Source of the DNA: an uncultured Candidatus Saccharibacteria bacterium
GTDB taxonomy: Bacteria; Patescibacteriota; Minisyncoccia; UBA6257
Reading direction: 5' to 3'
Assembly (NCBI GenBank): GCA_964618625.1
Contig: CAZUBI010000001.1
Coordinates: forward strand, 164,781-228,780
Length of the DNA stretch: 64,000 bases
Part shown: piece by piece, positions 2,429 through 20,670 of the stretch
Position numbering within the stretch: position 1 is the stretch's first letter
Layout: each line of letters opens with the position of its first letter
Notes under the pieces: generated by a model
Databases searched by the model: none
The model's input: only the letters and a program-made list of their open reading frames with translations
Told to the model about the DNA's origin: nothing
Position numbers and translations under genes: made by a program

Positions 2429-2662
2429 TTATTTAACTTGTCCTGAGTTTATCGAAGGATTAATTTTCGACCTTTTTTGGTCTTTAATAAACATTTCAAA
2501 GGAACGATCAAAAGTTTTTTCTGCTTCTTTTGAAAAACAACAAGCCAGCAATTCATTATGCGCCAAATGATATTTTATACATTCACAACAAATACCCTTT
2601 CTTGGACAATCAGGATAAGTACAAGGACATATTTTTAAATTTTCTTCTTTTTGACATTCCAT
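2429..2662 (-). CDS. cysteine-rich small protein
   Basis: 77 aa, multiple CxC/CxxC; the C-terminal ~12 codons and the stop codon are supplied by the long-variant junction repeat. Confidence 0.5.
   Translation of the reverse strand: MECQKEENLKICPCTYPDCPRKGICCECIKYHLAHNELLACCFSKEAEKTFDRSFEMFIKDQKRSKINPSINSGQVK
2435..2482. repeat. junction repeat, long variant
   Basis: AACTTGTCCTGAGTTTATCGAAGGATTAATTTTCGACCTTTTTTGGTC. Confidence 0.8.
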
Positions 2663-2710
2663 AATAAATTCTCAATTTCTTCCTCTATAATATTTTAGCA
2701 TAAAACCTTT

Positions 2711-3775
2711 TTATTCTAAAAATTCATCTACTGCTTTAATAAACTTCAAAGGATCAACGCTCGCGCCATTTACTTTTATAGAAAGATGTAAATGAGGACC
2801 TAATGACCAACCAGTATTTCCAACAAGCCCAATTAATTCTCCTCTTTCTATCATTTTTCCTTCTGAAACTTTAAATTGAGAAAGATGTAAATATAAAGAA
2901 TAGATTCCTAAACCATGATCTATAATTATCGTATTTCCATAAACTGTTAATTCTTGAACAAGAGCTACTTTACCATTATTAATCGCATAAATTGGCGTTC
3001 CCACAATAACATCCAAATCCACTCCCAAATGCTGAATTGTAACATCTCCGTCTTTTCTAATGTTCCCAAAAGCTCCAACATCTATTATTTCCCCAAGTGG
3101 ATAAATAAATTTCTGGTTAAAATATGCTATAGGATTATATTTTCCTAAAACCTCATAAATGATAACTCCGTCTTTGGTGGCAATGGTTTTTGATATATTT
3201 GATGAAGTTAGGCCTTTTTCTTCCAATTCTGGCGTTATTACAATTTTAGTTATATAAAAATCCTTCTTTTTTACTGTTATTGTTTCTTCAATTTTTGATT
3301 CGCCAGAAAGAAAAATTGATAAAGAATACCCTCTAGGAGTTTTTTTTGCATCAATTCCCAGAAGAGCTATCCATTTTCCTTCTGATTCAGTTGGGAAAAA
3401 ATCAAATGATTTGTTATTAAATTTTCCAGTAATCTTTTCTTCTTCGGAAACATTTTCTGCCGTAATAATTAATGTATCTCCCTGCTCAAGCTCAGTAACT
3501 GATAATAAAACCGCAAAAGAAGATTTTATTAATTCTGTAGTAGTAGCAGTAGTTGTTGTAATAGTTGTGGTTACAGTAGTAGCTGCAGTAATGGTTGTAG
3601 TTGTTATTGAATCTTCATTAATAGTTATTTTTGCACTTAGTTTTTCTTCTGGCTGAATATTTTCAAACGACCATTTAGATGACAATTGTGAAATAAAAAA
3701 GATAATTCCTGCCAAAATCAAAAAAAACAAAAAGATTAATGTCTTTGCTGAATTTTTTCTTACAAATAAACCCAT
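2711..3775 (-). CDS. membrane-anchored M23 (LytM-type) metallopeptidase
   Basis: 354 aa; N-terminal TM helix, Thr-rich linker (TTTTITAATTVTTTITTTTATTT), HxxxD (HLGVDLD) and HxH (HLHLS) M23 motifs. Confidence 0.85.
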   Translation of the reverse strand: MGLFVRKNSAKTLIFLFFLILAGIIFFISQLSSKWSFENIQPEEKLSAKITINEDSITTTTITAATTVTTTITTTTATTTELIKSSFAVLLSVTELEQGDTLIITAENVSEEEKITGKFNNKSFDFFPTESEGKWIALLGIDAKKTPRGYSLSIFLSGESKIEETITVKKKDFYITKIVITPELEEKGLTSSNISKTIATKDGVIIYEVLGKYNPIAYFNQKFIYPLGEIIDVGAFGNIRKDGDVTIQHLGVDLDVIVGTPIYAINNGKVALVQELTVYGNTIIIDHGLGIYSLYLHLSQFKVSEGKMIERGELIGLVGNTGWSLGPHLHLSIKVNGASVDPLKFIKAVDEFLE

Positions 3776-3783
3776 TTTTTAAT

Positions 3784-3807
3784 TTTCAATTAATTTTTTA
3801 CCTTTTT
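3784..3807. repeat. junction repeat, short variant
   Basis: TTTTCAATTAATTTTTTACCTTTT. Confidence 0.7.
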
Positions 3808-3867
3808 ATAAAATTCGGTTTATTAAAATAATGAAAAACGCCCCATTGGGACGCTTTTCATTTTTCT

Positions 3868-4149
3868 TTATTCAGCTTTTCTTTTACCTTCTTCATATTT
3901 TCTCCAAGCACTAGCTACAGCCGGTTCAACTCTATCCAACTCACTAAGAATAATCTCTCTAATTTCACTTGCAGCTATTTCCTCTCTATTTTCAATCATA
4001 GGAATTACTGAGGATGCAACTTGCTCTGCTACTTCACTTTTTCTCTCTTCTGGGATATCAGCCTGTCGAGCAGCACCAGCAATTGATTTTTTAATTTTTT
4101 CAGGATCAAATGGTTCTTTTGTCCCATTTTTTTTGATAACTTGAGCCAT
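3868..4149 (-). CDS. ATP-cone domain protein
   Basis: 93 aa; MAQVIKKNGTKEPFDPEKIKKSI matches the ATP-cone N-terminal consensus; a hairpin plus T-run follows the stop. Confidence 0.65.
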   Translation of the reverse strand: MAQVIKKNGTKEPFDPEKIKKSIAGAARQADIPEERKSEVAEQVASSVIPMIENREEIAASEIREIILSELDRVEPAVASAWRKYEEGKRKAE

Positions 4150-4391
4150 AATTTATTAAGAATTATCTATTAATTAATGTTAACGACCTTTGTTCCACTA
4201 TTTTAATTATACCAGATTTTCAAAAAAACTAATATATTAGTAAATCCAGATATCATTTTTCACTCAATCAATTTCTAATTTTTTATAAACTTGACCTTCG
4301 TAATAGTTTATGGTATCATTTTATACAAATAGCATATTGAAATCTTAAAACAAAATCTGATAAAAAGAGAAAAAAGAGGGGGTAAAAGAAG

Positions 4392-4598
4392 ATGCGAAAG
4401 ATACCAAAAAGGATTCGCAGATGCAAGTATTGTGGCTATAAAACCCATCATGCACTTTGGAAAGATAAAGTGTGCCCAATTTGCGAATCCGCCGAGGGTT
4501 ACTCAGAGAGTACCCACGGTGGACTAAATACAATTGAAATAGAGATTGAAAAACAGAAAGTTCTTTCAACAATTCAAAAGCGACAAGGGGGGCAGTAG
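4392..4598 (+). CDS. small zinc-ribbon protein
   Basis: 68 aa; CKYCGYK..CPICES two Cx2C pairs; SD-like GAGGGGGT 8 nt upstream; TTGACC-17-TATCAT promoter-like sequence ~70 nt upstream. Confidence 0.55.
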   Translation: MRKIPKRIRRCKYCGYKTHHALWKDKVCPICESAEGYSESTHGGLNTIEIEIEKQKVLSTIQKRQGGQ

Positions 4599-4713
4599 TT
4601 AGTTCTCCGGCTCTCCTTGTCCTTACTTTCGTAGCCCGGAAAGCCCCAATACCTGACAATTAGATCTTGACAAAATTTTATCAATTCTTATAAAAAATAG
4701 GAGGTAGAAATTA

Positions 4714-4950
4714 ATGAAAGAATTTTTTCCTTTTAAAATCGAGAAAATTTTTTCTCGTATATTAGCGCTGCTAGGAATCCTACTCGTAATCTCTATTGTA
4801 ACATCTGTTATCTGCTTGATTATCATTATGTTTTCTCCAATAGAAAGATTAGCGGTCAAAAATATTGGTATAATGAGCTCAGATTCTACTATATATTTGC
4901 TCATAGCAATATTTACCATCTTTATAGTAGTTTATCATGAAAAGAAATAA
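4714..4950 (+). CDS. small membrane protein
   Basis: 78 aa, two predicted TM helices; strong SD AGGAGGT upstream; followed by a perfect hairpin (4968-4991) and a T-run. Confidence 0.55.
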   Translation: MKEFFPFKIEKIFSRILALLGILLVISIVTSVICLIIIMFSPIERLAVKNIGIMSSDSTIYLLIAIFTIFIVVYHEKK

Positions 4951-4967
4951 TAAATCTCACTATCACC

Positions 4968-5000
4968 GCCCAAGGATAAGCTTATCCTTGGGCATTTTAT
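4968..5000. terminator. bidirectional intrinsic terminator hairpin
   Basis: CCCAAGGATAAGCTTATCCTTGGG perfect palindrome followed by a T-rich run; lies between convergent genes at 4714-4950 (+) and 5017-5472 (-). Confidence 0.6.
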
Positions 5001-5020
5001 TTCTCAATTAATTTTTCTAC
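5001..5020. repeat. junction repeat (CTAC subtype)
   Basis: TTCTCAATTAATTTTTCTAC; supplies the TAG stop of 5017-5472. Confidence 0.8.
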
Positions 5021-5472
5021 AATGATATTTTTTCTAAAACTTTCTCAAACCCCGGCAGTAATTTCAACTTTTTTGCGTCCCTCAATCTAATCCATTTATA
5101 ATCTTTTGCTTCCCAATTCAGTTTCACCTTATCTGTTCTTACCTTAACCAACACTGGATGAACAATCCATGTCTTCTTATATCGGAGCGCTTCCTGATGA
5201 AAAATCTCGCCCATACAAATGCTTTTTATTTCTTTTCCGCCAATACCTAGCTCTTCCTTTAATTCCTCTTTTACTTTTTGCTTAAGAGTTTTTTTATCAT
5301 CTAAAAATCCAGAAATGCCATTCCAATAACTCGGATAAAAAGCCAAATTTTCGCTTCGTTGAACAACTAATACTTTTCCCTTGTAATTCAAAACACAATT
5401 TATTACTGGCACCCAATGCACTTCAGTATAATCAATTTGCCCTGGTTTTGGTTTAAATTTAATCTTTTTCAT
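5017..5472 (-). CDS. NUDIX hydrolase
   Basis: 151 aa; Nudix box GISGFLDDKKTLKQKVKEELKEELGI (G-x5-E-x7-REUxEExGU pattern); identical protein to 9372-9827. Confidence 0.85.
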   Translation of the reverse strand: MKKIKFKPKPGQIDYTEVHWVPVINCVLNYKGKVLVVQRSENLAFYPSYWNGISGFLDDKKTLKQKVKEELKEELGIGGKEIKSICMGEIFHQEALRYKKTWIVHPVLVKVRTDKVKLNWEAKDYKWIRLRDAKKLKLLPGFEKVLEKISL

Positions 5473-5506
5473 ATTATTAACACAATAAAACTATAATAAA
5501 TTTTAT

Positions 5507-5530
5507 TTCTCAATTAATTTTTGACGTTTT
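5507..5530. repeat. junction repeat
   Basis: TTCTCAATTAATTTTTGACGTTTT. Confidence 0.8.
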
Positions 5531-5566
5531 TTGAATTAACGAGGTCTGACCTCCAAACTCATGTCC

Positions 5567-6163
5567 TTAAATGAGTTTATGGGCTTCAAGAAAATTCCTT
5601 ACTTTTTGAAAAATTTTATTATGGCCCTTCGCATTTGGATGAAGGCCATCTTCAAAATCGCTATTTTCCAGAAGACCTAATATATCCAGAAACAAAACAC
5701 TGTTTTCTTTGCACACTTTTCGTATTATCTCGTTATAAGTCTTGATGTCTTTGTTTGTGTAATAAATATTCCGCCAAGGCACAGGCATTGTTTTCGATTC
5801 ATCGCAATTTTTAAAACCAATGAAGATAATATTATCGGTAATTCCATGCGCTCTTTTGATAATTTTTTCTAAATTCGCCTTGAACTCACTATGTAACACT
5901 TGGTGATTGCCTTCAGTATGCTCATAGGCGGCATCATTTCCGCCTGTTTGGAAAATCAAAACATCGGCTTCTCTTATCTTTGCTTCTGATTCAAACCGAG
6001 CAAGAATTGTTTTGGTTGTGCCATCAGAGATACTAAGATTGTAAACTTCGTTATCAGTATCTTTTTCTGCCAAGTGCAACCAAAGACGATTTACCCAACC
6101 GCCTTTTTCTATATCCCATGCACCCCAAGCGGTGCTAGTGCCAAAAATACAAAATGTATGCAT
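5567..6163 (-). CDS. SGNH/GDSL-family hydrolase
   Basis: 198 aa; N-terminal GTSTAWG block, GGNDAAY block and DGLHPN (DxxH) catalytic block. Confidence 0.8.
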   Translation of the reverse strand: MHTFCIFGTSTAWGAWDIEKGGWVNRLWLHLAEKDTDNEVYNLSISDGTTKTILARFESEAKIREADVLIFQTGGNDAAYEHTEGNHQVLHSEFKANLEKIIKRAHGITDNIIFIGFKNCDESKTMPVPWRNIYYTNKDIKTYNEIIRKVCKENSVLFLDILGLLENSDFEDGLHPNAKGHNKIFQKVRNFLEAHKLI

Positions 6164-6166
6164 ATA

Positions 6167-6194
6167 ATTTTCAATTAATTTTTGAGGTTTTGGT
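6167..6194. repeat. junction repeat
   Basis: TTTTCAATTAATTTTTGAGGTTTTGGTT; abuts the start codon of 5567-6163. Confidence 0.8.
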
Positions 6195-6256
6195 TTTTAA
6201 GCCAGATGGCTTGAATTAGATGCTTGGAGGTTGAACCTCCAAGCATCTATTGTCTT

Positions 6257-6481
6257 CTACCTTTCAGAACCACCTAGACAAAATGCACAATTGTCATAAC
6301 CTTCATTTTTTGCTTGTTCTAAAGTATCGGGATCAAAAACCACTGCATTACCAGCTTCTATAATTTCATTAATTTGGCATTGCTCCTTTTCATTTTTAAG
6401 ATCGTGAACCTCCATATGACCAGAACTACTATTTCCTAAATATTTTTTATCAATCGGGCGACTACTAATTGGAATTGCCAT
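6257..6481 (-). CDS. hypothetical small protein
   Basis: 74 aa ORF in cassette-like spacing; C-terminal CAFCLGG; no family call. Confidence 0.45.
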   Translation of the reverse strand: MAIPISSRPIDKKYLGNSSSGHMEVHDLKNEKEQCQINEIIEAGNAVVFDPDTLEQAKNEGYDNCAFCLGGSER

Positions 6482-6506
6482 AATCTTATTTTTTATTTTT
6501 ATTTTA

Positions 6507-6570
6507 TTATTTTCGACCTTTTGAATTATTTTTCAATTAATTTTTGACCTTTTAGTTATTTCTCGACTTT
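6507..6570. repeat. junction repeat (one full copy flanked by two partial copies)
   Basis: TTATTTTCGACCTTTTGAATT + TTTTTCAATTAATTTTTGACCTTTTAGTT + ATTTCTCGAC. Confidence 0.75.
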
Positions 6571-7167
6571 AAACGGTTTTCCGTGGCCAGGAATTATATA
6601 ATCTGCAAATGCTAAAACTTTCTTTCTGCTATTTACTAAATCTTCTTCATTTTTTACATAAGGGTCTTGCAACTCTATTAGACTTCCTTTATCGGTTTTC
6701 TGTTCCTGGCTATCTTCCCACCAAAAAACATCGCCAGCTATTGCCACCTTTCCAAGATTCTCATCTTGAACTAAAACAGAGCAATGGAACATATCGTGCC
6801 CAGGGGTTTTAATTATTTCAATATCAGTTCCAGGAATTTTACCTCCATGTGATTCTATTTTTCCATCCCAGGAATAAATGTCCTCATTATCCAAAATTTT
6901 TGCCTTTTCAAAAACTCCAGCTAAAAGTGAATGGTCTAAATGATAATGCGTAAGAATTACGTAATTAATTTTATCTGGAGATAAATTTTCTTTTCTTAAA
7001 GCCTCTAATAATAGCTCCCTATTCGTTCCAGGGTCAACAATGATCTTTAAATCTACTTCTTGAATTAAAGTAGTTGATGATGAAGCAAATTCAGCACCGT
7101 CTTTTTCTCTTGCATAACCTTCAATTAAAATTTTAACTTTCGCCATAGTTTTATTTTTATTTCTCAA
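6556..7167 (-). CDS. MBL-fold metallo-hydrolase
   Basis: 203 aa; THYHLDH (HxHxDH) metallo-beta-lactamase motif. Confidence 0.85.
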   Translation of the reverse strand: MRNKNKTMAKVKILIEGYAREKDGAEFASSSTTLIQEVDLKIIVDPGTNRELLLEALRKENLSPDKINYVILTHYHLDHSLLAGVFEKAKILDNEDIYSWDGKIESHGGKIPGTDIEIIKTPGHDMFHCSVLVQDENLGKVAIAGDVFWWEDSQEQKTDKGSLIELQDPYVKNEEDLVNSRKKVLAFADYIIPGHGKPFKVEK

Positions 7168-7190
7168 TTAATTTTTGATGTTTTGGTTGG
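7161..7190. repeat. junction repeat
   Basis: TTCTCAATTAATTTTTGATGTTTTGGTTGG. Confidence 0.8.
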
Positions 7191-7286
7191 ATTTTAGTTT
7201 GTGGATAAATGGGCTTGACAACAGGTGTATTCTTGATACAATTTAACTAGAATACACATGAAAAACACCTCTATGGGTTTCGTCCC

Positions 7287-7787
7287 TTAGCGGTGTTTTT
7301 CTTTATACTCGAGTTTTTTTCTTAAATTAGCCATAAAAAATATCTTTTCTTTAGCTGTCTTTTTTAATAAAACCGAGCAAGTCCTGATATATGGGCTTAT
7401 CACACAATTAAGCTTATTGTTTTTGTATAAATGTTTAACTAAAGAATAAAAATCTCCGTCGCTTGTAACAATTACGGCTTTATCATATTTCTTATAATCA
7501 ACCATTACTTGTAAAACTAAATCCGCGTCCACATTGCCTTTAACTTCCCCGTTTTTATCGGGTAGTGTTGGTTTAAAAATTAGAACATAACCATCCCTTT
7601 GTAATGAAGAATACAAATCTTGGTTAGCCGGAATATAACCAATAAATAGATAAACTGTTGACACTTTATACTTTTCCTTTAAATAAATTCTAAATCTTCG
7701 ATAATCCAATTTCCAACCCAAACTTTGAATTCCTAAGTTAAGATTTTGACTATCAATAAAAGCAAAATTGTTTTCTTGTTTCTTCAT
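7287..7787 (-). CDS. NYN-domain (LabA-like) protein
   Basis: 166 aa; FAFIDSQNL, VDADLVLQ and VIVTSDGDF acidic blocks typical of NYN/LabA nucleases. Confidence 0.7.
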   Translation of the reverse strand: MKKQENNFAFIDSQNLNLGIQSLGWKLDYRRFRIYLKEKYKVSTVYLFIGYIPANQDLYSSLQRDGYVLIFKPTLPDKNGEVKGNVDADLVLQVMVDYKKYDKAVIVTSDGDFYSLVKHLYKNNKLNCVISPYIRTCSVLLKKTAKEKIFFMANLRKKLEYKEKHR

Positions 7788-7941
7788 AAGTTTTATTTAC
7801 GAGATTCGACCTCATAATACCTACTTATTAACATTTTAACATAAAATGCTAATTTATAATAAAATCCCCAAAAATTTGGGGATTTTAACTTTTTATTTTA
7901 ATAAAACATAAGCACTCAAGGAGAACTGTTCTCCTTTATTC

Positions 7942-8385
7942 TTAATTCTTTTTAAACCAACTAATAGCTTCGTCTATCATTGAGCGATAATCTTCTATTT
8001 TAACATAATTGAAAAATTCATCTGATGGTATAAATTTTCTTTCCTTCACTGTCCCTGAATCAGGATCAATTGTGCGTGGTTTTTTCTTGTCCAATAAAGC
8101 AGCAAATCTAAGCTGATAAATGGTAGGTTTATCTGAAATAACTTCATAATATCCAATCATTATATTTTCACCAATAATTACATCAGCCTCTTCCTCAAGC
8201 TCACGTTTTAATGTTTGCTCTGGCGTTTCATTATTTTCTGGCTTTCCTCCTGGAATATTCCAACTTCCATTCGAGTGACGAATAATTAAAATATTTCCTC
8301 CATTATCAAAACATATACCATATACTTGAGTAATTGGTTTTAAAGAAAAATGATCTGTAGTTTTATGCCAAATAAATTTCTTCAT
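7942..8385 (-). CDS. NUDIX hydrolase
   Basis: 147 aa; Nudix box PGGKPENNETPEQTLKRELEEEADV. Confidence 0.8.
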   Translation of the reverse strand: MKKFIWHKTTDHFSLKPITQVYGICFDNGGNILIIRHSNGSWNIPGGKPENNETPEQTLKRELEEEADVIIGENIMIGYYEVISDKPTIYQLRFAALLDKKKPRTIDPDSGTVKERKFIPSDEFFNYVKIEDYRSMIDEAISWFKKN

Positions 8386-8400
8386 TTGTATTTTAAATTC

Positions 8401-8796
8401 TTACTTCCCAGTTAATTTTTGACCTTTTCGTTTACCAAAATCTGGACCAGAAATGAAATATAAACCAAGTGCAATACCCAAATAATAATGAATTCTACCA
8501 CCTTCTATTATAATCAGCGCTAAATTAACTATTACCATTAAAATTCCAATGATCAGAAAGCCCTTTTTGATTTTAGCGGTCGTTATATACCTGCGATATC
8601 TAGCACCAAGAAACATAGACATTGGCAAAACTACTATAAGCATTCCTACAGCAATAAGAACCGCCTTAACAGGTATTCGCCCACCATACGCAATAAAAAC
8701 AAGAAATAAACCAAATGCAGCCGCTGCCGCCGTATTTACTAAAATCTTTTTGATAAGAAGCTTATTATCAATTTTTGGTAGTTGATTATTTTCCAT
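8401..8796 (-). CDS. integral membrane protein
   Basis: 131 aa, 3-4 hydrophobic helices; last codons (GQKLTGK*) are read from the junction repeat. Confidence 0.55.
   Translation of the reverse strand: MENNQLPKIDNKLLIKKILVNTAAAAAFGLFLVFIAYGGRIPVKAVLIAVGMLIVVLPMSMFLGARYRRYITTAKIKKGFLIIGILMVIVNLALIIIEGGRIHYYLGIALGLYFISGPDFGKRKGQKLTGK
8407..8430. repeat. junction repeat (inside the ORF 3' end)
   Basis: CCCAGTTAATTTTTGACCTTTTCG. Confidence 0.7.
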
Positions 8797-8798
8797 AT

Positions 8799-8820
8799 TT
8801 TTTTCAATTAATTTTTGAAA
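8799..8820. repeat. junction repeat
   Basis: TTTTTTCAATTAATTTTTGAAA. Confidence 0.75.
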
Positions 8821-9346
8821 TTATTTTAATTACCTTATTTGATTTTTCTTTCCAGCTTTTAAAAGATTTTATTCCAATATCCCACGAATTAAGTCCTTTT
8901 CCGACTATAAAATTCTTTTTATAAAAATCGCTTGTTTTTATATCTAAACTAATAGTTCTTTTACTCTGATCAACTATAATCCAATGTTCATTAACATACA
9001 CCTCTATAACACAATGCCCCCTGTTTTTAGGGTTTAATTTATCTATACCCATTATATATTTTGCAGGAATTCCTACTGCTCTGCATAGCGTCGCAAATAC
9101 TAAGGCATTATCATGACACCCTGTAGTAAAACCATCTTCCAAAACCTTATTAACATTTCTCCTAGCAAATATCTTTAGTATCTTTTTATAATCTTTACAT
9201 TGTTTAAGGTTTTTATCCATCCATCGAATAATACTCTCTATTTTTTCAAAATCATTTCCTGAAAATTTAGAAACTAATTTTTTAATTGATTTAGTAACCT
9301 TGCTTTGTTTTCCTTCTTTTAACCAAATTTTTATATTTTCTTTCAT
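8804..9346 (-). CDS. transglutaminase-like cysteine peptidase family protein
   Basis: 180 aa; GCHDNALVFATLCRAVGIPAKYI matches the transglutaminase-like core. Confidence 0.65.
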   Translation of the reverse strand: MKENIKIWLKEGKQSKVTKSIKKLVSKFSGNDFEKIESIIRWMDKNLKQCKDYKKILKIFARRNVNKVLEDGFTTGCHDNALVFATLCRAVGIPAKYIMGIDKLNPKNRGHCVIEVYVNEHWIIVDQSKRTISLDIKTSDFYKKNFIVGKGLNSWDIGIKSFKSWKEKSNKVIKIISKIN

Positions 9347-9356
9347 ATTTTAAAAT

Positions 9357-9376
9357 TCTCAATTAATTTTTCTACA
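9357..9376. repeat. junction repeat (CTAC subtype)
   Basis: TTCTCAATTAATTTTTCTAC; identical to 5001-5020. Confidence 0.8.
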
Positions 9377-9827: not shown

Positions 9828-9865
9828 ATTATTAACACAATAAAACTATAATAGATTTTATTTTT

Positions 9866-9913: not shown

Positions 9914-9920
9914 ATTTACT

Positions 9921-12591: not shown

Positions 12592-12592
12592 G

Positions 12593-13412: not shown

Positions 13413-13436
13413 ATTAATATTATGAATATTTTAGAA

Positions 13437-13462
13437 ATTTATTAATTTTTGACCCTTTGGTT
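13437..13462. repeat. junction repeat
   Basis: ATTTATTAATTTTTGACCCTTTGGTT. Confidence 0.7.
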
Positions 13463-14185
13463 TGGAGTGCTTAAGACTTCTTTTAAAAGTTGCGTAGCAG
13501 GATTAATAGGGCGCGCAATTCCAAGTCCAACGATTTCATATCTTTGTTGCTTTCCAACAATTGGTTTTGCAAATCGACCACTAATAAAACCTATGATCCT
13601 ACTAGATTTTTGAGAAAAAACTGGAGATCCACTAAATCCTTTGTCGCAATTTGTGTCTAAATAAAATAGCTCCGTTTTCTTTGTATTAGAATTCTTTTTG
13701 ATTGTAGCTATTATTGCATGAATATTTACAAAAGAAACGTTTTTTCTACCTGAAGAAATAGCCATTGTTGACTCGGGAAATCCAGAGAAAAAAAGTTTTT
13801 CACCTTCTTTAACTTTTTCAGAATCAGCAATAGCTAAAGGCTTAATGAACTGCTTTTTATCTTTATTAGCTCCCTCAGATATTTTCAGTAACTCAATAAT
13901 AACACAATCATTAATTATGTCTTGAGTTACAAATTTAGCATCACACATAATATAGTTAAATTCGTCTGATGAATCTAAAATCCAAATTTTTAGATTTCCC
14001 TTATCTTTATCAGGTATTTGATTATACACATGTGCCGCTGAAACAAAATAAGACGAGGATACACAAAAAGTTGTTCCTCTTATACCTAAAATTGTTTTTC
14101 CATTATTAGTACTGAAAAAACCAATAATCCCAATTGATGGTTTAACTCTCTCAATAAACTTCTCCAATGAATTTCTAAAACACAT
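13442..14185 (-). CDS. trypsin-like (S1/chymotrypsin-fold) serine protease
   Basis: 247 aa; VSAAHV (His block) and GFSGSPVF (Ser block, GDSGGP-like); C-terminus NQRVKN* is read from the junction repeat. Confidence 0.65.
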   Translation of the reverse strand: MCFRNSLEKFIERVKPSIGIIGFFSTNNGKTILGIRGTTFCVSSSYFVSAAHVYNQIPDKDKGNLKIWILDSSDEFNYIMCDAKFVTQDIINDCVIIELLKISEGANKDKKQFIKPLAIADSEKVKEGEKLFFSGFPESTMAISSGRKNVSFVNIHAIIATIKKNSNTKKTELFYLDTNCDKGFSGSPVFSQKSSRIIGFISGRFAKPIVGKQQRYEIVGLGIARPINPATQLLKEVLSTPNQRVKN

Positions 14186-14193
14186 AAATTTTT

Positions 14194-14213
14194 AAATTAA
14201 TTTTTGACCTTTT
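14194..14213. repeat. junction repeat
   Basis: AAATTAATTTTTGACCTTTT. Confidence 0.7.
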
Positions 14214-14270
14214 AAAATTTCTCCTAATTTTTTGGTGACTAGGACATAAATATAATTGCTTACTCGATAA

Positions 14271-16112
14271 TTATTTATTCTCATCAATTTGTGGTATAAG
14301 AAGTTGCGGTCGTTCTTTTATTTCTTGTTGAATAAATTTATCTAAGCTATCCTTTATTAAAATGAGTTGGGCGCGTTGTTTTTCTGTCAATTTAAATTCC
14401 ACATCTTTTAAATCTCCATCCTTAAATAAAATACCAAGCGCTTGTATTTCCCGAGGCTTACTAGGATTATTTGATGGTAAATTAAACTCGGTCCGAATAT
14501 TTTCTATAAGATCTCCGAAGTCATCTATTTCTTTCTTCAAAACCGTTTCTAAATTTTTACCAAATACTAACAACCTATTGTTAATTACTATCTCTGCATT
14601 TTTAACCTTCCTAATATCATCCATGGAAATATCGAAAGCGGTTGAATCTTTATTTTGAGCACTAGATTGATTAAGCACTTTAATAATTCTTTCGTTTATG
14701 CCATTTTCGCTGTTTGCCTCATCTCTATCAATCACTATAAGACAAGGGATTCCGAAAGCAGTAAGAAAAGTATAAATGGATGGAATATTATTTTTTCCAT
14801 CCGCTATTACCAACGCAAATTGATTTTTATCAATATTTGAAAAAGAATGAAATACCTCTGCGTCAGAGGGCCCTTCTACAATAACCGCTCTAGGAGCGAA
14901 AAGAGCTTCCCTCAAGCCGTTTGCAACTGTTTCAATAAGACTGTAATGAATATGTTGATCACTAATATTCTCTTTCTGTTGTCCCAAAGAAATTGTATGC
15001 TTCCTAAGTAGGGTACTATCCACATGTCTAACACTTATATTTTTATTTTCTTCCCATAAGACAACTATGTCTTCAAAGCTCCCGCAATCAATAAAATCTT
15101 CCGAATGAGTAGTATAAATTATTTGCCCTTCGGTATCCTCAGTTTTAATAGCTTGTTTCAAAACAGTAAACAAAGTTTTTCTTGCTTGTGGATGAAGGTA
15201 GCTTTCTGGCTCTTCTACTAAAAGCACAGCCCGATTATTTCTACTGTGTCTTTTCAAATAAGTTCGATAAATAGCTATAATTGCTAGTCTTTGAACACCT
15301 TCTCCTAATGTTTCCAACGGAACTTTGTTGCCATGTCTTTTAACCGAAAGCTTAAACTGACGATAATACCGCCATGGTTCATAATCAAGAAACTCCAGAT
15401 CTGTTCCACTAAGATTTAGAGGCTTAATCTGGCCCCAAAAAGTTTTTATATCTTTCTCAATATTCTTAAATTCCTGAGGGGCTCTTAATACCTTGACTGC
15501 ATCCGATATTTTCTTTTCAAATTCTTCTACTTTTTTCCCTTCATCTTCTTCGCTAAATATTCTTTCAACCTTCTGCAACATTCTCCCCAAAACACCCCAC
15601 TTGTTTGATGGTTGTTCGCCCTGAAGTTTTATCAGAGGAATCGTAATAACAACTGGTAAATTATTCTTGATATCCTGGCTTATTCTTATTTCGTTCTCCC
15701 ATTTATTTTTGGCTATTTCCCAATCACATTTATTAAAATCGTTTATCGTGTTGAGGAGAAAATAGTCAACACCAACAGAAGATTCACCATATCCAGTTTT
15801 TAAATGGTAGGCTTCAATAAGCAAACCGATAACTTCTTTATTTTCCCCGTAATAGGAAATTTCAATTGGGCTATTAAATTCCGCCGCTAGAATAATCTTT
15901 CTAGAAAGTTTATTGTTATAAAAATCATTTTCATTAAATTGGCTAGATGGCCATTTATCACCAAACAAAATATCTAGTGCCTTCAAAATGGTACTTTTGC
16001 CAACATTATTTGGACCAATCAAAGCAGTAAGACCAGAATTAGAAAATTCTATTATGACTGGTTCATCACCAAAACAGCGATAATTTTTTATTAGAAGCCT
16101 TTTTATAAACAT
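14271..16112 (-). CDS. OLD-family ATP-dependent endonuclease (AAA ATPase + Toprim)
   Basis: 613 aa; N-terminal Walker A GPNNVGKST in the LLIKNYRCF..LTALIGPNNVGKSTILKAL context typical of OLD/AAA_15-21; C-terminal Toprim block AVIVEGPSDAEVF. Confidence 0.8.
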   Translation of the reverse strand: MFIKRLLIKNYRCFGDEPVIIEFSNSGLTALIGPNNVGKSTILKALDILFGDKWPSSQFNENDFYNNKLSRKIILAAEFNSPIEISYYGENKEVIGLLIEAYHLKTGYGESSVGVDYFLLNTINDFNKCDWEIAKNKWENEIRISQDIKNNLPVVITIPLIKLQGEQPSNKWGVLGRMLQKVERIFSEEDEGKKVEEFEKKISDAVKVLRAPQEFKNIEKDIKTFWGQIKPLNLSGTDLEFLDYEPWRYYRQFKLSVKRHGNKVPLETLGEGVQRLAIIAIYRTYLKRHSRNNRAVLLVEEPESYLHPQARKTLFTVLKQAIKTEDTEGQIIYTTHSEDFIDCGSFEDIVVLWEENKNISVRHVDSTLLRKHTISLGQQKENISDQHIHYSLIETVANGLREALFAPRAVIVEGPSDAEVFHSFSNIDKNQFALVIADGKNNIPSIYTFLTAFGIPCLIVIDRDEANSENGINERIIKVLNQSSAQNKDSTAFDISMDDIRKVKNAEIVINNRLLVFGKNLETVLKKEIDDFGDLIENIRTEFNLPSNNPSKPREIQALGILFKDGDLKDVEFKLTEKQRAQLILIKDSLDKFIQQEIKERPQLLIPQIDENK

Positions 16113-16166
16113 AAAGATTTTAGTTCTTCAATTTTTCCCAATATTTCTTCCTATTTTTTATTATTT

Positions 16167-16238
16167 TTTATTTTCGACCTTTTTTATTTTTCAACTTGTC
16201 CTGAGCCTGTCGAAGGATTAATTTTTGACCTTTTGGTT
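16167..16238. repeat. junction repeat (partial copy plus long variant)
   Basis: TTATTTTCGACCTTTTTT ... TCAACTTGTCCTGAGCCTGTCGAAGGATTAATTTTTGACCTTTTGGTT. Confidence 0.8.
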
Positions 16239-16269
16239 ATTACGTTCAAAAATCAGACCTCATAATAAA

Positions 16270-17883
16270 TTAACTTTCGGACTCAGTGCCCATAGTCATA
16301 AAAGATACATTGTATCTAAATGCTCCATTCAATCTTTTTTGTGCATTTCGTAAATTTATTTTGCTAAAAAATGGAATATCAATTAAATTTCCATGCTTAC
16401 TGACAATCGCAAAAACAATTGTATATTCTGATGACTCTGGTCTTGTAATGGGCACTAATGATCTATGCGAAGAAGGTAAGATATCTCGCACTTTTTTTCT
16501 AAACTCTACATCAGACAAAAACAATTCTCCCGATACAAGACCTTGCGAAAATAGATGACTTAATACTGATGATGCGCCATATCGTTTGACATGAATAATC
16601 TTTTTATCACTGGTTAAAAGATCACAAAATTCAATCTTGCTATGGGCACCACCGTGAGAAACAAGTTTGCTATCCATATTACACACTCCTGAAAGCTCCA
16701 CGGATACTCTCTTATTATACTCGTCTTCCTTCTCTCCTTTTTGAGATTCTGGCAAACTAACAACTGGTGTAATCGTTCGGATACCCTCAAAATGATTATT
16801 AATTTCGTTAGCGAAATTAGTCTCTACTTCATACCATCTCCCATTGCTCAAAATATATGTTTTATCATTCTTTGTTAACTCTCCATATAAACAATTATAT
16901 GCTTTCCAGTGATCAATTAACTCCTCATTTTCTGCACCAATGCAATCAATAATTTCCGATTTAAATATTCCCAATGATAAATTATCACGAGCATTTGGAT
17001 CTAATGCCATAATAAAATCTTGTAAATAAATATCGTCACCTAGCGAATTTTTATTGCTTTCCATGCGAAATTCTAAAACTTTTTCCCATGGAATAATACT
17101 TGGAATTGCCATCCAAATTTTTTCTATATCTTCTATGCCTGAATTCTTAACTTTTTCTATCAGCTCATTATTTAATTCCTCAATAATCTTCGGGGATTTA
17201 ATTTCTGCAATATTATCTATCCAACTAAAATTGTTTTTATAATCACTACTATTATATTTTTCATAACATAATTTAAGAAAATTCTTGATATTTTTTAATT
17301 TTATTTTTATAGAAAGTGACAAAGCATCTTTTCCTGTAACTGTTTGTCCAAACTCTTCAAATTTCGATTTACCAGTCATTCCTTGTAGTAAATCTTGCTC
17401 AATATCAATTCCAAAATCTGCAACTGACCCACTTCTGGTCATTTGTTCAGTCACAAGCTTTGGAATAACTGTCATGTTCTTCCTATCAATATTTCTAATA
17501 TTCTCATGGTCAATTATATTAACTAAAACTTTGAGCCCAAACCGTTCTTCCCATACACCAGGATTCAAAAGCGTTCTACCATAACCAAATGTTACAGCAA
17601 ACAATCTACCTTCCACTTGAACAAGAAGGACTGCTTTTGCGCTGGCACTAAATATCTTAAGTTTATTATTGCCGTTTAGTTTTATATAATTATCAAAATC
17701 ACTCCCAAAAAACTTTTTAAGCCAAGTCGGTGAAAATATGTATGACTCCCCATAATAAATGTTCCCTACCTCATCTATTTGTTCGGTACTCAAATCATCA
17801 ACATTTTTAAAAATATCTACATCATTTGTATATTCATCTTTGATGAGATAAATCGTTAATTTGTTGCAATATTCTCTTGGCAT
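16270..17883 (-). CDS. hypothetical 537-aa protein immediately upstream of the OLD nuclease
   Basis: Long uninterrupted ORF; no motif I can assign; N-terminus MPREYCNKLTIYLIKDEY. Confidence 0.7.
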   Translation of the reverse strand: MPREYCNKLTIYLIKDEYTNDVDIFKNVDDLSTEQIDEVGNIYYGESYIFSPTWLKKFFGSDFDNYIKLNGNNKLKIFSASAKAVLLVQVEGRLFAVTFGYGRTLLNPGVWEERFGLKVLVNIIDHENIRNIDRKNMTVIPKLVTEQMTRSGSVADFGIDIEQDLLQGMTGKSKFEEFGQTVTGKDALSLSIKIKLKNIKNFLKLCYEKYNSSDYKNNFSWIDNIAEIKSPKIIEELNNELIEKVKNSGIEDIEKIWMAIPSIIPWEKVLEFRMESNKNSLGDDIYLQDFIMALDPNARDNLSLGIFKSEIIDCIGAENEELIDHWKAYNCLYGELTKNDKTYILSNGRWYEVETNFANEINNHFEGIRTITPVVSLPESQKGEKEDEYNKRVSVELSGVCNMDSKLVSHGGAHSKIEFCDLLTSDKKIIHVKRYGASSVLSHLFSQGLVSGELFLSDVEFRKKVRDILPSSHRSLVPITRPESSEYTIVFAIVSKHGNLIDIPFFSKINLRNAQKRLNGAFRYNVSFMTMGTESES

Positions 17884-17886
17884 ACT

Positions 17887-17914
17887 TTTTCAATTAATTT
17901 TTGACCTTTTGGTT
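17887..17914. repeat. junction repeat
   Basis: TTTTCAATTAATTTTTGACCTTTTGGTT, followed by GGGC (GTTGGGC). Confidence 0.8.
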
Positions 17915-18697
17915 GGGCAATTTTGAAGGTTGAATCTCTAAACGGTTTATTAAAAAATTACCAGATTCGAATTGTTCTTTTTGATTTTGATTTAAAGAAT
18001 TTTCTAAATATCCCAAAAGGTTATCCAAAATCTGTTTGCTATCTCCAACTAGTTGGTGATAGCTGTCAGAATTTCTAAGATCATTAAAATCCCATAAGGC
18101 TCTAAGCCCATTTTTAAAATTAGCCTTAAGAACAGTAATTATTTCTTCTATATGATTTTTTGCTTCTCCGATGTTTTCCGCAATTAAATATCTGATGGTT
18201 CTAAGGTAATAAAAAATTATTTGATTTTCAGGATCTAATAAGGTTTTTTGGAAAATACCCATCATTTGAATACTATTTATTGTTTCATCAAAATTATGGA
18301 AGTCTTTTATAAGTAAGTAAGCCTCTAAAAGTTCTAAGGTGGTATTAGAATCTGGTTTAATATATGAGGCTTCTTTTAACCTATTTATGGCGCTAATATA
18401 GTTTCTCGTTTTAATATGGCTCCTTCCATCCTGTTCTAATCTTTCAAATCTATTCTCTATTAGTTGCTTAAAAACAAGCCAAATAGAAAATATCGCGAAA
18501 ACTAAAATGCCTATTTGGGTTAAAAAATTCAAAAACCCAAATAACAAATTCAAGTCTTCTGCCATATCTAATCTCCGAATCATAGAAATTCCAAATATTA
18601 CCAAAATTAAAGTTCCTACCACGACCGTAGTCCAAAATCTTATATTAAAGGATGGAAACTTAAATATTTTTTCCCAAAATGTTTTTTTGTTATTCAT
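17894..18697 (-). CDS. membrane protein with cytoplasmic helical domain
   Basis: 267 aa; 2-3 N-terminal TM helices; C-terminus NQKVKN* is read from the junction repeat. Confidence 0.55.
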   Translation of the reverse strand: MNNKKTFWEKIFKFPSFNIRFWTTVVVGTLILVIFGISMIRRLDMAEDLNLLFGFLNFLTQIGILVFAIFSIWLVFKQLIENRFERLEQDGRSHIKTRNYISAINRLKEASYIKPDSNTTLELLEAYLLIKDFHNFDETINSIQMMGIFQKTLLDPENQIIFYYLRTIRYLIAENIGEAKNHIEEIITVLKANFKNGLRALWDFNDLRNSDSYHQLVGDSKQILDNLLGYLENSLNQNQKEQFESGNFLINRLEIQPSKLPNQKVKN

Positions 18698-18748
18698 ATT
18701 CTCTTAATCCTTTTGTTCGTTAAGATAATTTAAGCATTAAAGTCAAAT

Positions 18749-19039
18749 CTAAATTATTTTCTTTTTAAATTCTCTCATTTTTTTTCTTTCTGCATACTCC
18801 TTGAATGCTACCTGTTGTCCTTTGTCTTTTTCGTTTGTTTCCTTGGTCTCAACTTCGCCAATAATCTCTTCTTTACCTTTTTTTGCAATCCAATCAGGAA
18901 CATATCCCTTTATCTTTTTCGGCTTGTCATAGCCTGGAAGATCGGCTTTTACTTTATATCCTTGACCTTCATACCATTTAACACTTCTTAAAACTGCTTC
19001 ATCGTGTTGTTTTTGACCAATTTTGGTTCTTTTTTTCAT
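18749..19039 (-). CDS. small basic hypothetical protein
   Basis: 96 aa, Lys-rich; 2 bp downstream of the AIPR-like gene. Confidence 0.45.
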   Translation of the reverse strand: MKKRTKIGQKQHDEAVLRSVKWYEGQGYKVKADLPGYDKPKKIKGYVPDWIAKKGKEEIIGEVETKETNEKDKGQQVAFKEYAERKKMREFKKKII

Positions 19040-19041
19040 AA

Positions 19042-20670
19042 TTATTTTTCAATTAATTTTTCTACTACTTTCCAAGTTGCTTCATTTTTAAAAATATTAT
19101 TATAACTATATTCTTTGCCTTCCTTTTTTCTTATTATCTTAGCCGCTTTTTTGCAAAAATTAACAGCCTTTTTAAAACTTTGCACTTCTTTTTTATCGTA
19201 GTTATATAAAAAAGTCATAATATGAAAATTAGCATGATCTAAAAATGCTCTTTTGTTCTTATTATTGACGCCTTTTAATATCTTCTTCTCTCTTTTTATT
19301 TCTTCTTGTACAAAGATACAATAATCACAAATCTTTGTTATTTCATCTATTTTTAATTCTTCCTCGTTAAAAATCTCTTTGTATATTGATTTATCCCCTT
19401 TTATTATGTCAAATAGATCCTTTTTAGAAGATTTAGCTTTAGCTGGTTTCATATATTTACAAGAATAAATCCACTGCCCTAAATCAGTAATCAATATTTT
19501 GTCCTTAATTCCTGGCTTCTTTTTCCTTTGATATGAATAACCTTCTAGATTCAATATTTCTTCTAGCGTTTTTTGAATGAAATCATTTGTCCTAAGATCC
19601 CACTTATCTATTTTTCTTTGAGTATTAGTAGATTGGCAAACCGAATTTATCTCATTTTCATCCTCTGCCTCAAAAAGTCTAGTCAAAATCATAATTTTTT
19701 TACAGTCGCCTGCTAAAATTTCCTTATTTTGATACATATTATAAAGAGTACTTAATGATTGACATCCGTTTATAATTTGAGGATTGATAACATTAAAAAC
19801 ATATTTATCACTTATTTGTTTCAAATTCTTGCAGCTGACAGTAATACCATTATGAAAAAGATAAAATTTATTTTTTCGTTCTAAAATTGTATTTTTGAAA
19901 CTAAATTTTAGGCTTTTATCATTTTGATTAACTCTAATATTATCTTCAAAAATATTATATTTTTCATCATCTGCTTTTTCAAACATATCTAATAGTTTAA
20001 TCAATAAAACTTTACCAATAACAATACGATTTTTTTTATCATAAAAAGAACTATTATCTTGAAATTCTATCCTATCTAAAAAGTTAATCTTTTTCGAATA
20101 ATTAATATCTACTTTGACCAAATCTCTTAAATTAAGTAATTTCAATTCTACTCCTGTGTAATTATTGAGATGTGATTCTAGATTTTTTTTTAATTTATTC
20201 TCCGCATTCTTTTTGTCTGAATATCTTATTATGTTTAAATATATTTTATAATTTCCTTTTAAAAATCTTTTCCTTGCTTCCTTAATCTTCTTTGCCGCCA
20301 AAGGATTTAAATTATGCAAAGAAGTATTTGGATTGAAAAAATTCCTTTTTAATTCTTCTAAAAAACCATTAAGAATACTCTGACGATCAAATCCCTCGCT
20401 TTTAACATCTAAAATATTAATCTGCTTTTTTGCCTTGTTTACAACTATCGCATCAACCCCTCCATCCTTTTTTCCATCCGTAATCAATTCTTTATTATAT
20501 ATTTCATCATTATTAAAGCCAAAAAGTATTTTTATAATAGTTATGATCGCAGCATAAGCGTTTTCGCTCGAGCCCTTCATAGAATAATGTTCTCGATTGT
20601 GACTGAAAATCTTTTTAGCTAATTTAAAATCTTGATTTATTCTCCTTTCTATATATTCTTTTAAAAGCAT
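19042..20670 (-). CDS. AIPR-family (abortive infection phage resistance) protein
   Basis: 542 aa; N-terminal ITDGKKDGGVDAIVV block resembles the AIPR DG..DGGIDA signature; C-terminus EKLIEK* overlaps a junction-repeat copy. Confidence 0.6.
   Translation of the reverse strand: MLLKEYIERRINQDFKLAKKIFSHNREHYSMKGSSENAYAAIITIIKILFGFNNDEIYNKELITDGKKDGGVDAIVVNKAKKQINILDVKSEGFDRQSILNGFLEELKRNFFNPNTSLHNLNPLAAKKIKEARKRFLKGNYKIYLNIIRYSDKKNAENKLKKNLESHLNNYTGVELKLLNLRDLVKVDINYSKKINFLDRIEFQDNSSFYDKKNRIVIGKVLLIKLLDMFEKADDEKYNIFEDNIRVNQNDKSLKFSFKNTILERKNKFYLFHNGITVSCKNLKQISDKYVFNVINPQIINGCQSLSTLYNMYQNKEILAGDCKKIMILTRLFEAEDENEINSVCQSTNTQRKIDKWDLRTNDFIQKTLEEILNLEGYSYQRKKKPGIKDKILITDLGQWIYSCKYMKPAKAKSSKKDLFDIIKGDKSIYKEIFNEEELKIDEITKICDYCIFVQEEIKREKKILKGVNNKNKRAFLDHANFHIMTFLYNYDKKEVQSFKKAVNFCKKAAKIIRKKEGKEYSYNNIFKNEATWKVVEKLIEK
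19046..19065. repeat. junction repeat (CTAC subtype; inside the AIPR-like ORF 3' end)
   Basis: TTTTCAATTAATTTTTCTAC. Confidence 0.75.

Follow-up and report, generated by a model that had tools for sequence, protein, structure and literature searches.

The co-oriented ORFs clustered near the start of the 64-kb window (the whole stretch of DNA analyzed here) form a cassette array of about 17 kb on a Saccharibacteria-like chromosome, and there is about an even chance that its cassettes are mobilized at a new double-strand site by an unlinked site-specific recombinase. The junction site of this array is not previously described.

A profile search of the window returned 21 copies of the motif on the minus strand, all co-oriented, at 2426-19071, while at the same threshold no copy was found on the plus strand or in 19.1-64 kb. 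The ORFs between positions 2429 and 19039 are likewise all on the minus strand (27/27). The first-pass annotation had put about 20 copies and about 25 co-oriented ORFs at 2.4-19.1 kb and had described the housekeeping half of the window as free of the motif, and both statements are borne out. When the 14-mer ATTAATTTTTGACC was searched with at most two mismatches, we obtained 17 matches compared with 3.9 ± 2.0 expected (0 of 100 shuffles reached 17), and 16 of the 17 fell within 2459-17906 on a single strand. The conserved unit, CCAAAAGGTCAAAAATTAATTGArAAATAA, can be written in parts as CCAAAAGGTC-AAAAATTAAT-TGArAAATAA; the conserved motif reported earlier is real, but its length is 30 bp rather than 28. 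In the 30-bp logo, the left edge is sharp and the core is at least 97% invariant; the invariant part of the motif is its centre and not two separated boxes. Conservation holds regardless of the reading frame in which an upstream ORF runs through the motif. Three copies (2426-2478, 9858-9911, and 16184-16236) have the long form. The features of the array are as follows.

2426..19071, minus strand: cassette array as a whole, with 21 sites and some 27 co-oriented ORFs
19042..19071, minus strand: first array site (8.1 bits); core and right arm only, left arm non-consensus; overlaps the 3' end of the AIPR ORF
17883..17912, minus strand: junction site, consensus short form (29.3 bits)
16184..16236, minus strand: long-form junction site; core and right arm separated by a 22-nt insert, CCTTCGACAGGCTCAGGACAAG
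~16170-16183, minus strand: partial site (GGTCGAAAAT) after the long-form site 16184..16236
14186..14215, minus strand: junction site (19.6 bits)
13431..13460, minus strand: junction site, right arm divergent (17.5 bits)
13062..13091, minus strand: junction site, left arm weak (10.7 bits)
12183..12212, minus strand: junction site upstream of the Mrr cassette
11554..11583, minus strand: junction site, consensus (29.3 bits)
10910..10939, minus strand: junction site upstream of the MazG-like cassette
9858..9911, minus strand: long-form junction site of the +1 subtype (GTCGAAAAATT), located upstream of NUDIX copy B
9356..9855, minus strand: NUDIX cassette, copy B
9352..9381, minus strand: junction site closing NUDIX copy B at its 3' end; left arm lies in coding sequence
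8797..8826, minus strand: junction site
8401..8430, minus strand: junction site supplying ...KGQKLTGK* to ORF 8401-8796
7157..7186, minus strand: junction site between the NYN and MBL cassettes
6526..6555, minus strand: junction site, with a second, partial site after it at 6495-6524
6164..6193, minus strand: junction site
5503..5532, minus strand: junction site upstream of NUDIX copy A
5001..5500, minus strand: NUDIX cassette, copy A, 99% identical to copy B
4997..5026, minus strand: junction site closing NUDIX copy A at its 3' end
3779..3808, minus strand: junction site upstream of the M23 peptidase cassette; preceded by a terminator-like hairpin at 3830-3862
2426..2478, minus strand: last array site, long form

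The reading frames of nine ORFs close within the motif (examples are ...LPNQKVKN*, ...KSNQKVKN*, ...KGQKLTGK*, and ...VVEKLIEK*), where at least six had been noted. In the window, TTGA and the start codon that follows it are 6 to 101 nt apart, a variable spacing as noted before. Pfam upheld the cargo annotations: we found three NUDIX proteins, two HD proteins, MazG-like, MBL, GDSL, NYN, transglutaminase, and Mrr proteins, as well as trypsin-like, OLD, DUF6119, and AHJR proteins. Two of the three NUDIX cassettes are 99% identical duplicates that lie 4.3 kb apart in the window, each bounded by sites, and their identity begins just past the upstream site and stops at TTGAGAA of the downstream site. 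The upstream neighbors of the first site are AIPR, DUF6996/6997, and DNA methylase genes.

Arrays of the same motif are also present in several Candidatus Saccharibacteria MAGs and in about 25 metagenome contigs, a comparison set made up mostly of short-read metagenome contigs. Across 35 sequences, the array strand carried 237 copies and the opposite strand not one, and the motif was restricted to the arrays and not placed beside housekeeping genes. The 190 units delimited by sites have a median of 734 bp, 132 of them contain a single ORF, and 272 of the 277 ORFs in this set are co-oriented. Upstream stop codons are scattered relative to the site, while start codons mostly lie 7 to 15 nt after TTGA. 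Of 59 long 3' UTRs, 16 contain a strong hairpin that ends 5 to 10 nt short of the left arm; these hairpins mostly have no T-run, and most sites have no hairpin.

Comparison of related genomes revealed that motif-bounded units are gained, lost, duplicated, and reordered, which supports the earlier proposal of a cassette array. The 272 units fall into 142 families (94 singletons), and what related arrays show is shuffled neighbors rather than fixed synteny: shared families have many different neighbors (family 1, for example, occurs at 9 loci with 8 different upstream neighbors), and 53 cassette pairs are 93 to 100% identical and have different neighbors. Homology blocks between the window and other contigs stop at sites. 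In one pair of loci (L085 and L092), two adjacent blocks (99.5% and 99.3% identical) occur in swapped order, with all ends at sites. Variants of the left arm co-segregate with the upstream cassette (p 0.0005-0.02) and variants of the right arm with the downstream cassette (p 0.03); family 1, for instance, retains the right arm TTAATAA in six different contexts. Agreement switches from the upstream to the downstream cassette between columns 19 and 31 of the site. Since the left arm goes with the upstream cassette and the right arm with the downstream one, exchange is placed inside the invariant core, and the homology break falls there, roughly at TCAAAAATTAATTG. The 5' end of a cassette is thus formed by the right arm, and its 3' end by the left arm together with the core. 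The first-pass annotation had assigned the motif to the 3' end of each ORF, which is right for the left arm and core, but the right arm belongs to the downstream cassette.

We hypothesize that a site-specific recombinase whose gene lies elsewhere in the genome catalyzes the exchange. If two direct sites recombined, the DNA between them would be excised as a circle with one reconstituted site, and this circle could re-enter at any other site. The site may be read as two arms of about 11 bp, CAAAAGGTCAA and TTGArAAATAA, with inner TCAA/TTGA inverted repeats around a 7-bp AT core; on this reading it is laid out like the core site of a tyrosine recombinase. Probably the A-rich right arm doubles as a short translation leader of the downstream ORF; the genome has no Shine-Dalgarno sequences. 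Several observations speak against a dedicated recombination system. As the first-pass annotation had stated, there is no tyrosine recombinase in the window: Pfam scans of ORFs of at least about 70 amino acids and one 58-residue ORF gave no Phage_integrase domain or other recombinase in the 64 kb, and the 6 kb beyond the window start likewise yielded none. Searches of the array loci, among them a phmmer screen with XerD and gamma-delta resolvase sequences, found no integrase or recombinase in any of them. The arms share only the 4-bp inverted repeat, and the site is unlike the dif consensus. The sample examined contained no excised circle, empty-site variant, or clean A-B versus A-X-B case. 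Homologous recombination, moreover, equally predicts breakpoints inside a conserved core. We place slightly below even the chance that an environmental Saccharibacteria (CPR) clade possesses an independent gene-capture platform functionally analogous to integrons, a chromosomal store of more than 100 families of mobile single-gene cassettes. Exchange would then take place at the unstructured double-strand site of 30 bp, and the recombinase, not linked to the array, may belong to a family not yet tied to cassette mobility. In its behavior the array resembles an integron-style gene store.

The main alternative, possible although we judge it somewhat unlikely, is that the motif, joined in some cassettes by the hairpin before it, serves chiefly to express the downstream ORF (as non-sigma-70 promoter, operator, RNA-processing site, or translation leader) and that shuffling is a by-product of homologous recombination between identical patches of 13 to 30 bp, perhaps after natural transformation. 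The precedent is found in the hyperplastic regions of T4-type phages, where shuffling by homologous recombination between promoter-stem-loop repeats (PeSLs) was shown and mini-circles arise from recombination between repeats (PMC2839356). The two systems share several features: a repeated intergenic motif lies just upstream of the starts of small non-essential ORFs, a hairpin sometimes precedes it, and modules are inserted, deleted, or replaced with crossovers inside the repeat. The clustering of start codons after TTGA against scattered upstream stops, together with the hairpins before some sites (the terminator-like one lies directly before 3779-3808), fits such a terminator-plus-expression unit and counts against our preferred reading (PMC2839356), as do the movement of the right arm with the downstream ORF and the lack of a recombinase in the array loci. 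ComEC, which is encoded in the window, also favors this account. However, PeSLs are about 100 bp long with consensus sigma-70 -35/-10 boxes and working terminators, whereas the motif here is 30 bp, has no -35/-10 consensus, and is mostly without a hairpin. No core hexamer fits TAnnnT, that is, none has both A-11 and T-7, even though the canonical TGCTATAAT box does occur in the genome. Sigma-70-like sites were not enriched in the promoter scan (88 versus 98.7 expected). Among the matches listed, a single junction site of the 21 (9352-9381) was represented, by two 9-of-12 hits, the minimum score of the scan. An invariant centre in place of two boxes, and some 40 other genes of the window with no motif upstream, also argue against an expression signal. 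Moreover, PeSLs reside in phage genomes and use the phage's own very efficient homologous recombination, while the arrays are on a bacterial chromosome, where a 30-bp patch is short for RecA-dependent exchange; despite this, cassettes of 99 to 100% identity are already in different contexts.

The recombinase reading has a special case, which we consider improbable: dif-like sites at which the cassettes are moved by the host's XerC/XerD, or by a single Xer. The site of a dif module has 28 bp, with an 11-bp XerC arm, a variable 6-bp centre, and an 11-bp XerD arm, and is similar to chromosomal dif. An 11-7-11 reading with the inner TCAA/TTGA repeats is possible for our site, but its 7-bp centre is invariant. 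In the Acinetobacter plasmid modules (pdif, XerC/XerD) for which this mechanism was proposed, double-strand sites of 28 to 30 bp bound small accessory-gene modules in varied contexts with no linked recombinase gene, and conservation is highest in the inner, palindromic part of the arms, the outer bases being more variable (PMC6449649); the length of about 29 to 30 bp, the arms, and the window free of a dedicated recombinase are alike here. Those modules, however, are flanked by inversely oriented sites, C/D and D/C (PMC6449649), whereas 237 of 237 sites here are direct. The arrays are chromosomal with 10 to 20 units, their arms are unlike the XerC or XerD consensus with no sequence similarity to dif, and the array in the window does not sit at a GC-skew switch. 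The geometry, in turn, is that of sedentary chromosomal integrons and CALINs: long arrays of mostly single, co-oriented, unrelated small ORFs with one conserved site per junction split between neighboring cassettes, duplication and reshuffling between relatives, cassette size, ORF-less mini-cassettes, much defence or toxin-like cargo, and, as in CALINs, no adjacent integrase. Nonetheless, that the motif is a degenerate attC recombined by IntI as folded single-stranded DNA is the least probable explanation of all. An attC is an imperfect palindrome of 55 to 140 bp (R''-L''...L'-R') whose structure is conserved; it recombines as a folded single strand, with crossover at G|TT; IntI accompanies attI and Pc at the array head but is not required for a CALIN. 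The site here is 30 bp, unstructured, and strongly conserved in sequence, with exchange in an AT-rich core; IntI (in the window and array loci), attI, and Pc were not identified, and the host lineage is CPR/Saccharibacteria. When ten site regions were folded as single-stranded DNA, z-scores on either strand ranged from -1.3 to +0.3, and consistent inverted repeats were not found at the junctions, in line with the earlier statement that the motif is no canonical attC and has no extended palindrome; attC identity is contradicted. The suggested link to the GTTRRRY integron core did not hold: RYYYAAC-like bases occur at columns 3-9 of some sites, but no GTTRRRY partner complements them, their conservation at the outer edge of the left arm is weak (at most 0.4 bit, or 0.74 including column 9), and they are outside exchange columns 19-31. 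Finally, the motif is short and AT-rich and could be a generic intergenic repeat (a terminator or REP/MITE) in fixed synteny, or the shuffling could be an artefact of metagenome mis-assembly across it in a set of mostly short-read contigs; both are very unlikely. The strictly single orientation, the confinement to arrays, the clearly variable synteny, and the lack of a palindrome or T-run stand against the former, and a REP/MITE, which would be palindromic or TIR-bounded, dispersed, and in both orientations, is ruled against. Mis-assembly is countered by single reads, which span a 30-bp repeat, and by independent assemblies that repeat the same array orders (the window, L077, L142, and L144 share one order, and L062, L081, and L120 share another).

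The run of co-oriented copies of one junction motif that had been described from the sequence by the first-pass annotation proved to be real and well beyond the chance expectation. Allowing two mismatches at most, the 14-mer ATTAATTTTTGACC matched 17 times in the window against 3.9 matches expected by chance, and 16 of these lay between 2459 and 17906, on one strand throughout. When we searched with a profile made from the copies, 21 sites were found at 2426-19071, all on the minus strand, while the plus strand and the 19.1-64 kb part of the window gave none at the same threshold, so that the housekeeping half lacks the motif, as had been stated. All 27 ORFs within the array interval are encoded on that minus strand. 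The motif also provides ORF ends: nine ORFs stop within it, using its TAA, TGA or TAA codons, and the distance from TTGA to the next start codon is 6-101 nt in the window.

Features of the array in the window
2426-19071, minus strand: array of 21 sites
2426-2478, 9858-9911 and 16184-16236, minus strand: long-form sites
6495-6555 and 16170-16236: double sites
4995-5522: NUDIX cassette, single-cassette homology block (blastn)
6526-7158: MBL cassette, likewise
8800-9372: transglutaminase cassette, likewise
9891-10564: HD cassette, likewise
10574-10920: MazG-like cassette, likewise
11552-12209: Mrr cassette, likewise

Comparison of the window with other contigs by blastn gave homology blocks that were single cassettes with ends at sites. 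Clustering of 272 units gave 142 families, 94 of them singletons, and the families found repeatedly had many different neighbours: family 1 had eight different upstream neighbours at nine loci, family 4 six at six loci, and family 7 four upstream and five downstream neighbours at five loci. What comes after the NYN cassette differs between arrays: MBL in the window, an unrelated gene and then M23 in L034 (from an unclassified MAG), and a homologue of the window gene 25114-26127 in L008 (on a 314-kb Saccharibacteria contig). Altogether, 53 cassette pairs with 93-100% nucleotide identity differed in at least one neighbour. The clearest recent event is seen between two other array sequences, L085 and L092, in which adjacent blocks of 2812 bp (99.5%) and 544 bp (99.3%) are swapped in order, with all ends at sites. 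Two of the three NUDIX genes in the window are 99% identical duplicates; the duplicated unit begins right after one site and stops at the TTGAGAA of the next, and the sites upstream of the two copies differ, one being short and the other long. A clean single-cassette indel (A-B versus A-X-B) was not present in this sample. Mis-assembly is unlikely because the same orders recur across independent assemblies (window, L077, L142 and L144; L062, L081 and L120) and the 30-bp repeat is shorter than a read. Related arrays thus differ in unit neighbours, order and copy number with block ends at sites, in keeping with the earlier cassette-array reading.

To locate the exchange, we compared junction pairs in which only the upstream cassette was shared with pairs in which only the downstream cassette was shared. 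Upstream-sharing pairs had excess agreement in the left arm (alignment columns 9-10, p 0.0005; columns 15-19, p 0.006-0.02), while downstream-sharing pairs had no excess at the left-arm positions and a weaker excess in the right arm (columns 30 and 32, p 0.03). Family 1 cassettes retained an unusual right arm, TTAATAA, whichever of six upstream cassettes preceded them. Among pairs at least 90% identical, agreement exceeded background only up to column 19 when the upstream cassette was shared, and only from column 31 on when the downstream cassette was shared; since the agreement switches between these columns, the break lies within the invariant core. These results establish that the region is a cassette array and that exchange takes place at its junction motif. 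The first-pass annotation was confirmed in its observation and in part in its interpretation: the cassette array stood, while the resemblance to the integron core consensus GTTRRRY was not supported, the exchange not being at a GTTRRRY site. An excised unit would consist of right arm, ORF, left arm and core, and its circularization would rebuild one full site.

The site logo, made from 115 distinct contexts, has 30 conserved positions (CCAAAAGGTCAAAAATTAATTGArAAATAA) with a sharp left edge, a centre (TCAAAAATTAATT) that is at least 97% invariant, and less conserved outer parts; conservation is independent of the reading frame of the upstream ORF. From this we infer two arms of ~11 bp (CAAAAGGTCAA and TTGArAAATAA), inner TCAA/TTGA inverted repeats, and a 7-bp AT centre. 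The absence of an extended imperfect palindrome was upheld: folding of the site regions as ssDNA of either strand gave no structure (z-scores -1.3 to +0.3), and an inverted-repeat scan at the junctions gave nothing consistent. For the whole window, Rfam at the gathering threshold returned tRNA-Pro only. The long form, present in three window copies, is the short form with an insert of 22-23 nt (CCTTCG-N5-6-CTCAGGACAAG) that sits precisely at the core/right-arm boundary, after AAATTAA(T) and before TTGAr. Long-form sites were also seen in L018, L087, L092, L128 and L131, with longer versions in L018 and L114. A subtype with one extra base (GTCGAAAAATT) accounts for 9 of 124 strong sites, and some sites, among them the first of the window array, lack the left-arm consensus. 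At double sites a second site, often partial, follows 8-12 nt after a full one; outside the window they occur at L088 831, L121 4982 and 5491, and L129 8666. This second site, often truncated, begins (T/A)AGGTCGAAAA. Double sites explain 6 of 10 GGTCGAAAA occurrences in 314 kb, and a lone truncated second-site copy lies at L137 4925, ~1.9 kb beyond the window start.

Two explanations for the movement of cassettes were weighed. That a site-specific recombinase acts on the junction sites and moves cassettes through them stands, in our judgement, at an even chance. It is favoured by the site's length, layout and invariant centre, by the strict direct orientation of the sites, by the confinement of the motif to arrays, by the insertion of the long-form segment exactly at the core/right-arm boundary, and by the rate at which near-identical cassettes are reshuffled although they have only 13-30 bp of sequence in common. 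The motif is also without a sigma-70 consensus, though the genome uses canonical boxes (TGCTATAAT at ~40470), and a sigma-70 promoter scan gave no enrichment and no consistent match on it. To our knowledge, the ECF, sigma-54 and Bacteroidetes promoter consensus sequences, hix and dif all misfit the motif in spacing or sequence. Against a recombinase, however, none was found in the window or 6 kb beyond its start, nor in any array locus or flank searched. Pfam detected no recombinase or transposase domain in the window ORFs of at least ~70 aa and one 58-aa ORF, which agrees with the earlier remark that no tyrosine recombinase is visible, and no recombinase in the array flanks of L129, L117, L121, L008 and L088. 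Besides R-M genes and RadC, the array flanks carry core metabolism genes, among them those for PRPP synthetase, Pta, AckA and POR. A phmmer search with approximate XerD and gamma-delta resolvase sequences as queries matched none of the ORFs in 35 array sequences; no recombinase was among the 25 commonest of the 174 families in a Pfam census, so that a single one could be hidden among the rest; and two unannotated proteins of 320-340 aa near the array (22902-23867 and 25114-26127) had no PDB relative.

Two further features weigh against the recombinase. Most start codons lie 7-15 nt past TTGA in a genome without Shine-Dalgarno sequences, so the A-rich right arm may be a translation leader, and 16 of 59 long 3' UTRs terminate in a strong hairpin that stands 5-10 nt ahead of the left arm. 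This hairpin recalls the promoter-stem-loop (PeSL) cassettes of T4-type phages, for which modular shuffling and mini-circles via homologous recombination between repeats are described (PMC2839356). The motif could likewise be an expression-signal repeat, with shuffling by homologous recombination between its copies, but promoter boxes are absent from the motif, no T-runs stand behind the hairpins, most sites have no hairpin and the shared patch is short; we consider this explanation possible but doubtful. If it held, the array would be the first bacterial-chromosome counterpart of phage PeSL shuffling. A minority of cassettes have a perfect-hairpin family (TTGGAGGTTCAACCTCCAA or ACGAGGTnnnACCTCGT, then AAATCTAA) 5-10 nt upstream of the left arm, all without a T-run (window 5540-5580 and 6217-6249; L082, L085, L092, L094, L098 and L131). 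Shine-Dalgarno sequences are missing from almost all genes of the window. Upstream regions are A/T-rich, many with a TATAAT-like box near the ATG, and initiation of translation thus appears Shine-Dalgarno-independent.

When one genome per GTDB species was scanned for an exact 19-mer, 72 loci were obtained, mostly single chance matches. Multi-copy co-oriented arrays in that scan were limited to MAGs titled Candidatus Saccharibacteria (L008 and L041 on the same 314-kb contig, L011, L018), L034, and three contigs of one MAG labelled Methanosarcinales (L016, L044, L062), which we take as mis-binned because their cassette order equals that of metagenome contigs with the same arrays. A 21-mer metagenome scan added ~25 array-bearing contigs, with as many as 11 sites within 13 kb; window 5376-8251 and L077 are 100% identical. 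The proposed search of related bins recovered arrays of the same motif. In 35 oriented sequences the array strand held 237 sites and the opposite strand none. The motif is local in the 314-kb contig as well, since the exact 19-mer occurs there at two loci only. Viral contigs gave single chance matches only, plasmid and phage collections no match to the array, and exact-protein matches sought for alternative contexts the same strain only, or nothing. In L121, a related contig from the same metagenome, an 8-kb core metabolism block (5491-13617; PRPP synthetase, SDR, Pta, AckA, POR) splits the site run, which then resumes, so sites can flank essential genes. The arrays of the window, L121 and L129 lie at a similar chromosomal position. 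A decayed core stands 5' of the conserved unannotated gene 25114-26127 (AAAAATTAAC in the window, 25114-26170; AAAAATTAAT in L008, 300-440), and the cassette region may once have reached beyond 19.1 kb.

The sites delimit 190 units with a median length of 734 bp; 132 hold one ORF, 272 of 277 ORFs are co-directional, and ORF-less units of 30-118 bp are present. In the Pfam census, 138 protein-cluster representatives matched 174 families; the cargo includes methyltransferases, NYN, HNH, GmrSD, Mrr, type I R-M subunits, NUDIX, trypsin-like proteases and hydrolases, and several match defence-system models. Pfam on the window ORFs upheld the cargo annotations first listed. A stand-alone ATP-cone protein of 93 aa is encoded by one cassette (3868-4149). 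In the NYN cassette, the 3' UTR of ~100 nt (7187-7290) is conserved and common to L034, L008 and L121; its antisense strand has a near-consensus sigma-70-like promoter (7215-7242, plus; TTGACA-16-TGATACAAT), from which an antisense RNA to the NYN nuclease gene may be transcribed.

In function, the array most resembles a sedentary chromosomal integron or a CALIN (cluster of attC sites lacking an integrase). It fails the defining tests of that family, as no attC structure and no IntI were found and the exchange lies away from GTTRRRY. Acinetobacter dif modules are alike in their short double-strand sites and unlinked recombinase, but those sites are inversely oriented with a variable centre (PMC6449649), whereas here they are direct with an invariant centre. 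In the literature searched, no account of arrays like these was found for Saccharibacteria or any other CPR lineage. We regard this one as a cassette array with a new family of sites, in a new lineage. The genomes of CPR bacteria are tiny, and few routes of gene acquisition are ascribed to these organisms. If true, a dedicated cassette store would explain a flexible accessory pool for defence, nucleotide housecleaning and the cell envelope, and would be a second, independent answer to the problem that integrons solve; the site would be short enough for use as a tool, and the 30-mer would be a sequence tag to harvest the lineage's mobile gene pool from metagenomes.

Three features outside the array were also observed.

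31486-39849, plus strand: island with G+C 36-39% versus ~30%, terminating at tRNA-Pro (39771-39849)
40400-40475, minus strand: canonical extended -10 box (TGCTATAAT), then a GC-richer stretch containing TTCAGGACAAGTT
44882-48217, minus strand: NrdD (anaerobic ribonucleotide reductase)

The island has no integrase; its genes code for a heavy-metal P-type ATPase, a CsoR-like repressor, a cysteine desulfurase, and HMA-domain and DsbD/DsbA-like proteins. It probably represents a metal-resistance island gained by horizontal transfer. The stretch at 40400-40475 had no Rfam match at the gathering threshold and may be a small RNA gene; its TTCAGGACAAGTT is related to the long-form insert. NrdD is split by an intein with a LAGLIDADG homing-endonuclease domain.
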